Positions 1-2,759 of a stretch of 64,000 nucleotides of DNA are shown piece by piece. The position numbers and the translations under genes are program-made. Origin of the DNA: Escherichia phage vB_EcoM_ACG-C40. The notes under the pieces are model-generated. The model did no database searches and had not been told where the DNA came from. It saw nothing but the letters and a program-made list of their open reading frames with translations. The stretch lies in sequence record NC_019399.1; one strand, 5' to 3'. Each line of letters begins with the position of its first letter. Position 1 is the first letter of the stretch.

Positions 1-311
1 CAATGGCAATTTCTGAACATCTCATGCTCTACTGGAATCGTATAATAAAATAACTGTAAGTCTTTATTACTAGAATATTTAAATACACCTAGGTCTTCTA
101 GAAGGTCTGGATTATAATTGCTAAAACCGGTCTCTTCTAAGCATTCTCTTTTTGCAGCTTCCAGTGCATTCAAATCAGAACTTTCTACACGTCCCTTTGG
201 AATATCCCAGCGATGTGCCATCATTCCAGGCTTACGAGAACCAGTAACCCGACCCATAAATAAATCTTTATCTTCTGTCATGAAGATAATACCAGCTGAT
301 AATGTTTTCAT
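1..311 (-). CDS. nudE: Nudix hydrolase NudE, N-terminal part (3' end lies beyond window start)
   Basis: ATG at 311 on minus strand; Nudix-box-like GRVESSDLNALEAAKRECLEETG; start overlaps stop of 308..796 (ATGA). Confidence 0.65.
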   Translation of the reverse strand, partial: MKTLSAGIIFMTEDKDLFMGRVTGSRKPGMMAHRWDIPKGRVESSDLNALEAAKRECLEETGFSNYNPDLLEDLGVFKYSSNKDLQLFYYTIPVEHEMFRNCH

Positions 312-796
312 TTTAATTTCCTGCATTCAGTGATAAAGTTATTTAAATTTTGAGTATATTTCTTTTCATCAAAAATCTTTTGTTGTCTGCGTAGCCGCCA
401 TGGCATTTCAATGAACGTGTACCATATCCCAGATAATATTGATGCTGTAAAAATATTAACAAGTATGGTTAAAAGAATCCAATCTCCCGTTCTGTCTACT
501 GGACTTTCTCCAAAGAAGCAAAATACAAATGATGTCACAGGAAAACTAATAATATACCACAGAATCATAATCTTATCTGTGAACCAATCAGTGTTCGTTA
601 ACTTAGCACGACCATTTTGAATACACACGAATTTATCATCTGTTACAGTAGATGGCTTAACTGCTTGATATCCCATTCTAAACTCCCTAATCAGCAAATT
701 TTTCATATCTTCGGAACAGCCATTCCAGTCAACTCTATCAACTGAAATGCCATCATCCCCATCATCTAAATCATACCAGCGAGTTTTTAAAATCAT
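308..796 (-). CDS. membrane protein, paralog A (soluble N-domain + 2 predicted TM helices + basic C-tail)
   Basis: 162-aa ORF; hydrophobic segments IMILWYIISFPVTSFVFCFFG and WILLTILVNIFTASILSGIWYTF; C-tail ...NNFITECRKLK resembles tails of the next two genes. Confidence 0.6.
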   Translation of the reverse strand: MILKTRWYDLDDGDDGISVDRVDWNGCSEDMKNLLIREFRMGYQAVKPSTVTDDKFVCIQNGRAKLTNTDWFTDKIMILWYIISFPVTSFVFCFFGESPVDRTGDWILLTILVNIFTASILSGIWYTFIEMPWRLRRQQKIFDEKKYTQNLNNFITECRKLK

Positions 797-1167
797 TTGA
801 TTTTCCTACAATCATTCACGAATTCTTTCATTGATTCATTTTCAATATAAGACATGTAGTTATTATATTCTTTTAATTGTATTTTGTAATCCTTTTTTCT
901 TTGCCAATTTATTTTAAAATTATCATAATGAAAATATAAAATAATACCAAAGAATGAAAATAATGAAATCGCTATAGTATAATGAAGTTCACTCCAAACT
1001 TCTATTATATCTACTATACCGCTGACATTACTGCGGATGTTTAAAATAATACAGTCAATCATTAATCCAATAAGACTACCCGCAAGAGCTGCAGCCAACG
1101 CCACAGCAAAAATTAAAAATGACTCAGAAAACGAATATTTGACTTTATTTAGTTTTGGCTTTTGCAT
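793..1167 (-). CDS. membrane protein, paralog B (2 predicted TM helices + basic C-tail)
   Basis: 124-aa ORF; TM-like LIFAVALAAALAGSLIGLMI and AISLFSFFGIILYF; C-tail ...EFVNDCRKIK; ATGA overlap with downstream gene. Confidence 0.6.
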   Translation of the reverse strand: MQKPKLNKVKYSFSESFLIFAVALAAALAGSLIGLMIDCIILNIRSNVSGIVDIIEVWSELHYTIAISLFSFFGIILYFHYDNFKINWQRKKDYKIQLKEYNNYMSYIENESMKEFVNDCRKIK

Positions 1168-1541
1168 CGTGATTCCTTAACAAATTTCATAATTTCATCA
1201 AATTCATACGCGGCAAGTTTAAGCTGATGTTCCTTTTTAATCTTTTTACACTGTGCTTTCCAATCACGTACACGTTTACGATAATGTCTTCCTTGATACC
1301 AATATCCTATCCAATTTACAGGTACTAATAAAAGTGGAACTATTAATGGAAGAATTAGCATTAACACAAGTATTTCGCCAGAATCAATATCAGTCATAAC
1401 ATCTAAAACACCTCCAATAATCAATAGAATTACAAATGATATGAGTATAACAGGACCTATTAACACATCAGTAGAAATTATCTGACGCTTTGGTTCATAC
1501 TTCACAGGTTTACTTGGAAGGTATAGTGATGGTTTTGACAT
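1149..1541 (-). CDS. membrane protein, paralog C (2 predicted TM helices + basic C-tail)
   Basis: ORF 1149..1562; likely start is ATG at 1541 (MSKPSL...) 12 nt after TAAGGAA; C-tail ...KFVKESRCK. Confidence 0.55.
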   Translation of the reverse strand: MSKPSLYLPSKPVKYEPKRQIISTDVLIGPVILISFVILLIIGGVLDVMTDIDSGEILVLMLILPLIVPLLLVPVNWIGYWYQGRHYRKRVRDWKAQCKKIKKEHQLKLAAYEFDEIMKFVKESRCKSQN

Positions 1542-2124
1542 ATTCTCTACATTCCTTAACAAATTTTTCTAGTAATAAATCGCTTTCAAAACTAGGATTT
1601 TCCACGAATTTATCAAAAAGATCATCAACAATAGTTAAGATATTCTTTTTACTAAGAATACGTTTATTTTCATGCTTCGTTTCAGAATCAACTATAAGAG
1701 TAAAGAAATATTTCTTTCCCTGAAATTTTACTGTAGTATCAATATAGAATAAATTTGACTTTTGTAAGTTACGTTTAAACCATGCGTCACTTAAACTATA
1801 AACACCGAGATAATCAAAATCGTCGTTTAAATAACATACTGTCCATTCAGGAGAAATGAAATCAGTAAATTCAACATCAAAATCACACGTCAATGAATGA
1901 ATTGATTCAATACTGTTAATAAGTATTCCAGGACGTATTAAAGACTTTTTACCTCTGGAAAATCTTCCAGAAAGACTTTCATTAGTTTCATATGAAGAAC
2001 CCCAATAATAATTACGCCCTTCTGCCATACGTTTAAGAGCATTTAATAATTGGTCTGGAACATCAACTTGTCTTTGGAATTCTTCAAACATTGAATTGAA
2101 ATCACTTTGCATTTTCATTTTCAT
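1510..2124 (-). CDS. hypothetical protein (204 aa), C-terminus carries the same FVKECR tail motif
   Basis: Intact 204-aa ORF; 3' end overlaps the start region of the next gene. Confidence 0.55.
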   Translation of the reverse strand: MKMKMQSDFNSMFEEFQRQVDVPDQLLNALKRMAEGRNYYWGSSYETNESLSGRFSRGKKSLIRPGILINSIESIHSLTCDFDVEFTDFISPEWTVCYLNDDFDYLGVYSLSDAWFKRNLQKSNLFYIDTTVKFQGKKYFFTLIVDSETKHENKRILSKKNILTIVDDLFDKFVENPSFESDLLLEKFVKECREYVKTITIPSK

Positions 2125-2143
2125 TCCTATTTACTCCAAGTAT

Positions 2144-2161
2144 AAGGGGCCGAAGCCCCTT
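2144..2161 (-). repeat. intercistronic GC hairpin AAGGGGC-CGAA-GCCCCTT, copy 1 of 3
   Basis: Perfect 7-bp stem with tetraloop; identical core at 43093..43110 and 63084..63100, each just 3' of a minus-strand stop codon. Confidence 0.6.
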
Positions 2162-2165
2162 ATCA

Positions 2166-2759
2166 TTATTTCAGAGAATTAATGTATTCCTGAACATCGG
2201 CAGAGGTAGTTTCAACCCCAGAAATATTACCGTTAAAGGTTTCAACTCGAGCAAGGGTATCTTCAATATCAACCTTAGTCAGTGCTGCAATTTCAACTAC
2301 ATCATCAGCAGTACTAATTCCAAGGGCATTTGCTGCACGAGTTTCACGGATATATTCCAATTTAACCGCAAGTTCTTGACGAGCATCATCTAACTCAACT
2401 ACTTTCTTGGCGATTTCAATTCGCATTTCAGCATAACCGTCAGCCTTAGTAGTCAACTGCTCAGCTGTTCGACGATATAGCAAACCGAGTTTAGCATGCA
2501 TTGTTACATCTTGGCCTTCGGAAAGAAGTTTACGAATTTCACGCTCTTTTGATTCGGCCTGTCGATTCTTTTCGATAACAAGTTCACGAATACGTTTTTC
2601 TTCGTTAATAGATTTAACAGAAGCAGTTTTTAGATCTTTAATTTTATCAAGTAGTTTTGCTGCTGCGGCAGTATACTGTTCTTCGACAGATAGATTTTTA
2701 GCCATAGCAGAACCAAGTTTAGTGCGAATAAACTCAACAATTTTCTTCAGTGTGTTCAT
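2166..2759 (-). CDS. hypothetical coiled-coil protein (197 aa); weak PspA/IM30-like character
   Basis: Intact ORF rich in heptad-like E/K/R/L/A segments; family assignment is a guess. Confidence 0.5.

Follow-up and report, generated by a model that had tools for sequence, protein, structure and literature searches.

Three consecutive genes at positions 308-1541 of the DNA analysed here raise the question of whether small membrane proteins that end in the same few residues descend from one duplicated gene, and of why that ending is kept. The window, by which is meant the whole stretch of 64,000 nucleotides (nt) from Escherichia phage vB_EcoM_ACG-C40 (NC_019399.1), is approximately 94% identical to T4 and comes from a T4-like phage of the genus Tequatrovirus. 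On comparison with T4, the three genes correspond to the catalogued accessory early genes e.2, e.3 and e.4, which are already known. In an earlier reading made without database searches (the sequence-only reading), they had been described as a locally duplicated and diverged family of membrane proteins, each with about two hydrophobic helices and a basic tail. The interpretation favoured here, with modest confidence, is that e.2-e.4 of the T4 type belong to a coupled run of genes whose products share a tail end under selection at the protein level, that this end would act as a docking helix, and that repeats at the gene junctions would mediate the dynamics of the cassettes.

Four adjacent genes end in the same motif

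A search of the six-frame translation of the 64 kb window for the pattern F-[VILM]-x-[ED]-[CS]-R returned five matches, four of which are the C-termini of e.2, e.3, e.4 and the adjoining gene e.5; the fifth falls in a 27-codon open reading frame (ORF). No match was obtained in a reversed-sequence control. In the rest of T4, covered as three further pieces with ORFs of at least 40 codons, the motif occurs only internally in nrdH and once in a non-annotated frame. As a gene end in a T4-type genome it is restricted to the four adjacent genes e.2-e.5, which is far beyond chance. The sequence-only reading had given F-[VI]-x-[ED]-[CS]-R as the ending common to the three genes and FVKECR as that of the next gene at 1510..2124, and both statements were borne out (Table 1); the e.5 protein ends in LLLEKFVKECREYVKTITIPSK, or in longer form LLLEKFVKECREY. 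Neither the shared C-terminal motif nor its presence on e.5 was found in annotations or in the searchable literature.

Translated searches of phage genomes supplied more distant orthologues, from Mosigvirus-like JK45, from Gaprivervirus VR7 and its relatives, and from Dhakavirus QL01, Bp7 and ABTNLsp5. The motif recurs in Tequatrovirus, Mosigvirus-like JK45, Gaprivervirus and Dhakavirus orthologues that are just 21-53% identical overall, in the forms FIKECR, FVKEIR, FIMECR, FIKECK, FIKEIR, FITECR and FIEECR. The e.2 orthologues of QL01 (45% identical) and Bp7 (34% identical) end in FIEECRK and FIKECRK, respectively, and the e.5 orthologue of JK45 (45% identical) carries FIMECREY and has the end LILEQFIMECREY. 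In Dhakavirus and some Gapriverviruses the e.5 position is occupied by a gene from another PHROG (8788), a remote relative of e.5 that matches it in register (E=0.005); by BLASTP, the part common to this family and e.5 is just L-x-x-F-I-x-E-C-R-E-Y. Because soluble e.5 and its remote relatives carry the motif, it is not specific to membrane proteins.

A fifth family with the motif is RB69ORF133c, which is gp130 of JK45 (L002 6652-6957), a protein of 101 amino acids with two hydrophobic segments and the tail end LENFIKECRGK. It resembles the array proteins in its two transmembrane (TM) helices, in its tail and motif ending, in its closely spaced downstream gene, which starts 4 nt past the stop codon, and in its location in the e.6-nudE neighbourhood. 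The match to e.2 is in register with residues 79-165, and the best foreign PHROG match of this family (phrog_9798) is the e.2 family (E=1.2e-4), a match that is gone once the motif is removed. Unlike e.2, RB69ORF133c has no N-terminal soluble domain, and it lies approximately 2.4 kb from e.3, outside the array.

The consensus reads hydrophobic(-3)-x-x-F(0)-[IV](+1)-x-[ED](+3)-[C/S/I/V](+4)-[RK](+5). Its four hydrophobic positions are spaced i, i+3, i+4 and i+7, that is, along one face of a helix, and in the AlphaFold2 (AF2) prediction for e.4 the motif stretch lies in a separate C-terminal helix (residues 111-128). The three proteins e.2, e.3 and e.4 demonstrably share this end of the tail, a helix of the form hydrophobic-x-x-F-[IV]-x-[ED]-[C/S/I]-[RK].

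Selection on the motif

The last codons of the genes had also been said to encode the ribosome-binding site of the following gene (AGGAAA or AAGGAA), and the conservation of the ending to be partly at the nucleotide level. The first point was confirmed for all of e.2-e.5: in e.2 and e.3 the R-K codons contain the Shine-Dalgarno sequence of the gene that follows (AGGAAA), and in e.4 and e.5 the K-E codons do (AAGGAA), with 17-28 nt between the F codon and the next ATG, or approximately 40 nt in the Dhakavirus e.5-like gene. The second point may hold for e.4 and e.5, whose motif codons are frozen and whose ends share an exact 16-nt direct repeat (AAATTTGTTAAGGAAT); the motifs of e.2 and e.3 are kept at the protein level. 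Since the motif stretches of e.4 and e.5 overlap or abut the start of the next gene, nucleotide constraint or gene conversion would contribute there.

Across genes and genera, the motif is written with different codons: AGG, AGA, CGA, CGT and CGC for arginine, TGT and TGC for cysteine, and TTT and TTC for phenylalanine. Nonsynonymous (pN) and synonymous (pS) diversity was computed from 11 Tequatrovirus genomes. In the motif region pS was 0.21 and pN 0.025 for e.3, and pS was 0.12 and pN 0 for e.2. The tails gave pN/pS of 0.08-0.12 at normal pS, compared with 0.53-0.63 for the hairpins overall and 0.47-0.87 for TM1 and TM2 taken separately. Many other overlapping or coupled T4 gene pairs are without the motif. 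Junction RNAs folded no better than shuffled sequences (z from -0.41 to +0.54) and Rfam returned zero families at the junctions; an RNA element was rejected on these two results. The codon usage and diversity data argue for selection on the protein as the reason why the motif is conserved in four Tevenvirinae genera, beyond a by-product of the embedded ribosome-binding site, with e.4 and e.5 excepted.

Extent of similarity between e.2, e.3 and e.4

Pairwise alignment had been proposed as a check on common descent, and masking of the last codons had been named beforehand as the decisive comparison; with the motif masked, no significant similarity of the gene bodies is left. In Smith-Waterman comparisons against shuffles, the whole proteins gave z=5.9 for e.2-e.3, 4.5 for e.3-e.4 and 2.1 for e.2-e.4. 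When the motif and everything after it were removed, these values were 1.7, 3.0 and 0.9, respectively, and with the motif masked the corresponding probabilities were P=0.059, 0.011 and 0.16. Shallow profiles built from close homologues aligned with hhalign probabilities below 8% and over short patches only. Profiles drawn across genera aligned the tails of e.3 and e.4 over 40 columns (hhalign 82%, E=1e-5) and the ends of e.3 and e.2 over 18 columns (78%, E=1.9e-5), and even these gave no significant alignment of e.4 with e.2. Masking of the motif in hhalign yielded P=0.019 for e.3-e.4, and 0.28 and 0.52 for the other two pairs.

Cross-matches between PHROG hidden Markov models (HMMs) ran in register over helices and tail, with e.3 matching the e.4 family at 0.008; Gaprivervirus e.4 matched the e.3 family at 0.0011, and Gaprivervirus e.3 the e.2 family at 0.0007. 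They vanished after the motif was cut, the best survivor having E=0.066. Imm, an unrelated T4 two-helix protein that served as a negative control, gave comparable scores with the profiles of e.3 and e.4 (P=0.0075 and 0.26). A search of 1.84 billion representatives with the e.3 profile produced seven matches, among them no e.4, e.2 or distant relatives. DNA repeats inside the genes, such as a 13-mer common to TM1 of e.2 and TM1 of e.4, were discarded because matches of equal quality exist between unrelated parts of the region.

By these comparisons, the homology between the e.3 and e.4 tails is somewhat longer than the common C-terminal module. The hairpins, which evolve fast, show no detectable homology. 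Of the proposal that similarity extends further upstream than the last codons, there remains the alignment of the e.3 and e.4 tails over 40 columns, motif included; the comparisons made with the motif masked lost significance. The proposed duplicated and diverged family agrees with the adjacency of the genes, their same layout and the shared tail end, but a relation over the whole genes is not significant once the motif is masked.

Predicted membrane topology

Hydropathy was assessed in Kyte-Doolittle windows, and helices were predicted by AF2 for e.4 and e.2, with a predicted local distance difference test (pLDDT) score of 67 and 50, respectively. Each of the three proteins has two hydrophobic segments (Table 1), with which the AF2 helices of e.4 (24-49, 54-108 and 111-128) and those of e.2 (69-96 and 103-161, low confidence) agree; e.5 and e.6 have zero hydrophobic segments in Kyte-Doolittle windows. 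The two-helix layout anticipated from the letters therefore describes e.3 and e.4 as they stand, but in e.2 it applies to the C-terminal half alone, which follows an extra soluble N-terminal domain.

The e.2 protein consists of this acidic domain of 74 amino acids, TM1, a short loop, TM2 and a basic tail with the end NLNNFITECRKLK. In e.3, a basic N-terminus (MQKPKL) is followed by TM1, a periplasmic loop, TM2 and a tail with the end ESMKEFVNDCRKIK, and in e.4 a basic N-terminus (MSKPSLYLPSKP) is followed by TM1, an acidic loop, TM2 and a long basic helical tail with the end EIMKFVKESRCKSQN. Domain order and predicted topology are common to all three, with two hydrophobic segments joined by an acidic loop, and with basic ends and a helical tail. 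The basic tail that had been noted after the two helices was found in each protein, with the stretches PWRLRRQQK, NWQRKKDYK and YWYQGRHYRKRVRDWK past TM2. Net charges are +4 at the N-terminus (e.3 and e.4), -1 to -3 in the loop and +3 to +9 in the tail, a pattern that, under the positive-inside rule, would put both ends in the cytoplasm and the short loop in the periplasm. We infer that e.2, e.3 and e.4 are small inner-membrane proteins with an N-in/C-in helical hairpin, a short acidic periplasmic loop and a basic helical cytoplasmic tail of 33-52 residues.

Some e.4 alleles (P0132-P0135) have a wholly different TM1-loop-TM2 between near-identical N-terminal and tail regions, together with 4-amino-acid indels. 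The position of these differences, which corresponds to 1407-1472 and 1308-1376 in the window, suggests allelic replacement of a segment inside the hairpin.

Repeats at the gene junctions and variation in gene content

The e.3/e.2 and e.2/nudE junctions, aligned on their start codons, are identical at 18/22 nt (TGATTGTAGGAAAATCAAATGA and TGAATGCAGGAAATTAAAATGA). RB32 and an IMG/VR contig (L009) lack precisely e.2: the sequence GATTG(T/C)AGGAAA runs directly into TTAAAATGAAAAC, and e.3 now ends in CRKLK, as e.2 does, with nudE as its coupled neighbour. The crossover of this RB32-type loss falls in the repeated motif and Shine-Dalgarno sequence, inside GA(T/A)TG(T/C)AGGAAA. At a minimum of 60% identity, e.2 is present in 446 phage records, e.3 in 497 and e.4 in 502, approximately 50 fewer for e.2.

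UFV05 and UFV11 have, in place of e.4, e.3 and e.2, an e.4::e.2 hybrid joined in frame (P0143, 106 amino acids; vB_EcoM-UFV11, L016 608-928), and its joint is a 6-nt microhomology, TCCTGT, in TM1. Gene content also differs between more distant phages, QL01 being without e.4 and VR7 without an e.5-like gene before e.4. It follows that the cassettes of the array do not form a stable set. The last approximately 25 nt of a gene double as the start region of the next, which gives short direct repeats at the junctions; these are crossover points that remove cassettes, as in the loss shown, and that presumably once added them.

Short repeats also drive modular shuffling in the hyperplastic regions of T4-type genomes, where they are of the promoter-early stem-loop (PeSL) type (PMC2839356, PMC4122927). 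The locus studied here is unmentioned in either of these papers. The likeness is one of analogous behaviour, not of membership: in both cases short boundary repeats in a variable T4-type region are crossover points for the gain or loss of small accessory genes. Whereas a PeSL is an intergenic promoter with a stem-loop, the repeats of e.2-e.5 consist of the last codons of one gene with the Shine-Dalgarno sequence and start of the next. A PeSL-type cassette was rejected for this locus, since no intergenic promoter or hairpin lies between e.5 and nudE, the genes overlap by 4-32 nt and the only hairpin is upstream of e.5.

Two further records concern the same genes. In vB_SsoM_113 (L022 1237-2211), one A is lost from an A5 run just before the e.5 motif, and e.5 and e.4 are fused in frame into an ORF of 324 amino acids; a homopolymer sequencing error is more likely than a real fusion. 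A programmed frameshift joining e.5 to e.4 was rejected, as A5-TTT is not a canonical slippery heptamer and the fused form occurs in a single record. In RB32 (L017 678-974), e.3 is annotated with 98 amino acids and the end WQRKKGLQNTIKRI, which matches a +1 shift of the e.3 tail frame, and yet the motif can still be read in the original frame from the nucleotides farther downstream; this e.3 may be decaying, or the record may be in error.

Identity and order of the genes

The first 3.3 kb of the window have matches in 542 phage records, nearly all Tequatrovirus, at 90-96% identity, and the T4 counterpart of the region (AF158101 67165-70796) is collinear with approximately 94% nucleotide identity. 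The T4 annotation places e.6, e.5, e.4, e.3, e.2 and nudE here, every one of them on the early-gene strand, and describes e.2, e.3 and e.4 each as a 'conserved hypothetical, predicted membrane protein'; an older T4 record names the genes msp8 to msp3 (Table 1). PHROG profiles cover each gene at full length (E=1e-61 to 1e-108), and the e.2, e.3 and e.4 proteins are 82-99% identical to those in many Tequatrovirus records. The comparison with the T4 ORFs that had been recommended thus identified the same genes (PHROGs 2203, 2330 and 2604; homologues carry the precomputed Pfam assignments PF26896 and PF26873) in the same order, on the same strand and with the same overlaps, in the position between e.5/e.6 and nudE that they hold in T4. 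The earlier description of three consecutive coupled genes also held: the overlaps are 32 nt (e.5/e.4), 19 nt (e.4/e.3), 4 nt (e.3/e.2) and 4 nt (e.2/nudE), the last two being ATGA sequences that combine the stop codon of one gene with the start codon of the next. By these overlaps, e.5-e.4-e.3-e.2-nudE form a single run without gaps, coupled in translation.

Table 1 Features of the e.6-nudE region. Positions are those of the window; TM, transmembrane segment; aa, amino acids.
Feature	Position	Strand	Support or remark
nudE, 5' part (Nudix hydrolase)	1..311	-	Pfam NUDIX E=4e-13; T4 annotation; closes the coupled run in the window
e.2 (msp7), 162 aa	308..796	-	phrog_2203 E=3e-78 (1-160 of 162); homologues 93-82% identical; T4 annotation; hydropathy
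e.3 (msp6), 124 aa	793..1167	-	phrog_2330 E=1e-61 (1-122 of 124); homologues
e.4 (msp5), 130 aa, ATG at 1541	1149..1541	-	phrog_2604 E=2e-70 (1-130 of 130); homologues carry precomputed PF26873
e.5 (msp4), 204 aa, soluble	1510..2124	-	phrog_2607 E=1e-108; without hydrophobic segment
e.6	2166..2759	-	T4 annotation
e.2 motif FITECR (TTT ATC ACT GAA TGC AGG)	320..337	-	nudE Shine-Dalgarno AGGAAA in R-K codons
e.3 motif FVNDCR (TTC GTG AAT GAT TGT AGG)	805..822	-	e.2 Shine-Dalgarno AGGAAA in R-K codons
e.4 motif FVKESR (TTT GTT AAG GAA TCA CGA)	1167..1184	-	e.3 Shine-Dalgarno AAGGAA in K-E codons
e.5 motif FVKECR (TTT GTT AAG GAA TGT AGA)	1546..1563	-	e.4 Shine-Dalgarno AAGGAA in K-E codons
e.2 TM1, predicted (aa 75-96)	509..574	-	Hydropathy, AF2; holds the TCCTGT microhomology of the natural e.4::e.2 hybrid
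e.2 TM2, predicted (aa 105-129)	410..484	-	Hydropathy, AF2
e.3 TM1, predicted (aa 15-43)	1039..1125	-	Hydropathy; pN/pS 0.51
e.3 TM2, predicted (aa 61-80)	928..987	-	Hydropathy; pN/pS 0.61
e.4 TM1, predicted (aa 24-45)	1407..1472	-	Hydropathy, AF2; pN/pS 0.61
e.4 TM2, predicted (aa 56-78)	1308..1376	-	Hydropathy, AF2; pN/pS 0.87
16-nt direct repeat AAATTTGTTAAGGAAT, copy 1, e.4 end	1172..1187	-	
16-nt direct repeat AAATTTGTTAAGGAAT, copy 2, e.5 end	1551..1566	-	
22-nt junction repeat TGATTGTAGGAAAATCAAATGA, e.3 end/e.2 start	793..814	-	Site of the crossover in e.2 deletions of the RB32 type
Partner 22-nt junction repeat TGAATGCAGGAAATTAAAATGA, e.2 end/nudE start	308..329	-	
GC-rich hairpin between e.6 and e.5	2142..2163	.	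Putative stem-loop in T4 record L13089; upstream limit of the gap-free coupled run

The T4 reference differs from the window in e.2 itself. Relative to the window, T4 e.2 (L001 2827-3296) has a 1-nt deletion followed 78 nt on by a 1-nt insertion, and this frameshift yields the annotated e.2 of 102 amino acids and a 161-nt 'gap' before nudE. The intact form of 162 amino acids is present in the window and in most relatives; truncated forms of 102 and 122 amino acids recur in several clusters.

Proposed role of the C-terminal helix and alternatives

The tail and motif are strongly constrained and the hairpin weakly, and the same ending stands on a soluble neighbour; for these reasons the hairpin is proposed to be mainly an anchor. 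Since the conserved residues at -3, 0, +1 and +4 share one helix face, the C-terminal helix could form a common docking surface through which all these proteins meet one cytoplasmic partner at the membrane's inner face or, with lower probability, bind one another. Because gene content varies between phages, a common external partner would be likelier than an obligate complex of the four proteins. Several observations weigh against the interpretation as a whole. The motif codons of e.4 and e.5 are nearly frozen, with pS of 0 (no synonymous change among the 11 genomes) and 0.045, and in these two genes nucleotide constraint from the overlap with the next gene and from the Shine-Dalgarno sequence is inseparable from protein constraint. 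Each motif-bearing gene seen has a coupled gene next to it, which leaves room for a role in downstream initiation, and the variation in gene content argues against an obligate hetero-complex. The AF2 confidence is moderate at best (pLDDT 67) or low (pLDDT 50). Sequence searches of Pfam, NCBIfam, PADLOC and the PDB gave nothing above threshold for e.2-e.6 and no homologue of known function, and the case for docking consists of the conservation pattern and the helical periodicity. Literature searches for e.2-e.6 or the msp genes likewise returned nothing on function.

The nearest alternative concerns origin rather than role. The C-terminal half of e.2, e.3, e.4 and also RB69ORF133c may have arisen from one two-helix gene by local tandem duplication, with hairpins that diverged past detection and a constrained tail end that still shows the origin. 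The order of parts, the similar lengths, the adjacency and the identical topology all fit, as do the PHROG cross-matches in register over both helices and the tail; e.3 and e.4 have in common an N-terminal M-x-K-P-x-L...KY patch as well as the 40-column tail alignment, their residual masked signals agree in direction (Smith-Waterman P=0.011, hhalign P=0.019, HMM E=0.066), and loss of signal is expected because hairpins evolve fast (pN/pS 0.5-0.9). A viable hybrid of e.4 and e.2, in frame and in register, exists in UFV05 and UFV11, but its junction is a mere 6-nt microhomology. Every comparison with the motif masked falls short of significance, unrelated Imm scores equally well, e.4 against e.2 is never significant, and the soluble e.5 family has the motif too, so that sharing it is by itself no proof of whole-gene ancestry. 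We regard descent of the whole genes from a common ancestor as plausible, if still somewhat doubtful. By contrast, it is very improbable that the motif is simply the initiation region of the downstream gene, a Shine-Dalgarno sequence with a U-rich upstream enhancer copied along with the cassettes, and that the peptide has no function of its own. The next Shine-Dalgarno sequence does always lie inside the motif, 16 nt are identical at the ends of e.4 and e.5 with near-zero synonymous diversity there, and a coupled gene follows 17-40 nt past every motif. Against this, the amino acids are constant while the codons vary (five for Arg, two each for Cys and Phe), the e.3 and e.2 motifs combine normal pS with pN near zero, the Shine-Dalgarno sequence occupies differing codon pairs at varying distances from the ATG, other coupled T4 genes are without the motif, and the junction RNAs fold no better than shuffles.

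Alternatives to docking on an external partner were weighed on the same observations. Assembly of e.5, e.4, e.3 and e.2 through identical C-terminal helices into one membrane-bound complex, held at a fixed ratio by coupling, would suit the tightly coupled, overlapping genes, the hydrophobic face common to -3, 0, +1 and +4, and the in-frame joining of e.5 to e.4 by a 1-nt deletion in vB_SsoM_113. That fusion may be a homopolymer sequencing error, however, and membership varies: e.2 is lost in RB32 and e.3 in UFV11, e.4 is absent from QL01, and the e.5-like gene is absent before e.4 in VR7. We consider such a complex quite unlikely. Slightly less so, though still improbable, are three independent effectors that act through the variable hairpin and periplasmic loop, for instance in superinfection exclusion or against a membrane-based host defence, with diverging copies kept by an arms race. 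Hairpins and loops are indeed variable (pN/pS 0.5-0.9, and 1.7 in the 8-codon e.2 loop), with indels and swapped TM1-loop alleles such as P0132-P0135, and these are early, non-essential genes in a variable region with frequent gains, losses and hybrids. Yet pN/pS below 1 suits relaxed constraint equally well as diversifying selection, and conservation is strongest in the cytoplasmic tail, not in the exposed loop. The proteins show no similarity to Imm or to any PADLOC model; the defence and anti-defence models of PADLOC gave no match to e.2-e.6 at E up to 1. Imm, which confers superinfection immunity in T4, is likewise a small early phage inner-membrane protein with two predicted transmembrane helices, but it is without the long basic tail and the motif, and a relation was rejected at hhalign probabilities of 0.2% (e.4) and 5% (e.3).

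An extension of the docking interpretation is offered as speculation, and we think it unlikely in its full form. The motif helix, hydrophobic-x-x-F-[IV]-x-E-C-R, would be a portable address tag on several unrelated T-even early proteins, three or four membrane hairpins and one soluble protein, and would bring each of them to a single target, belonging to host or phage, on the inner membrane face; the coding sequence of the tag would double as the start region of the next gene and as a recombination joint for adding and removing tagged cassettes.

The genes are known; what is modestly new is that five families carry the conserved C-terminal motif and that it is used as a recombination joint. 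The new element, a single short peptide that appears to be kept by protein-level selection over four Tevenvirinae genera, gives a handle on five 'hypothetical' families, and, as the probable cytoplasmic end of each, makes long-catalogued T4 ORFs experimentally approachable. The exact loss of e.2 at a repeated junction indicates that overlapping coupled genes can act as cassettes that are removed without any intergenic repeats, which adds a little to the view of T4-type genome plasticity based on PeSLs.

Other observations in the region

The hairpin between e.6 and e.5 (AAGGGGCCGAAGCCCCTT) is perfect, and its coding strand has no T-run; rather than acting as a terminator, it might serve in processing or stability. 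In NCBI entries some e.3 and e.4 proteins are labelled 'sulfurtransferase', and in RAST-based records e.6 is labelled 'host specificity protein'. Neither label is supported in Pfam and NCBIfam scans, and both look like propagated misannotations.

Directly downstream of e.3 in the Mosigvirus-like, Gaprivervirus and Dhakavirus genomes lies a tandem array of three to five small acidic soluble proteins of 65-101 amino acids (L002 4231-5025 in JK45, L004 3984-5243 in VR7, L005 3114-4374 in QL01, and L013 3191-4457). The genes are spaced by 9-10 nt in JK45 and VR7, and some pairs overlap in QL01 and L013. All of these proteins end in G-W-[VI]-[SA]-S-S-x-x-C-stop or a variant of it (GAWVSSSALC, GGWVASSHTC, QGWVSSSYSC, FWYNSSMSC and IWYPSSC), and the array has the appearance of a further local family whose members share a C-terminal motif.

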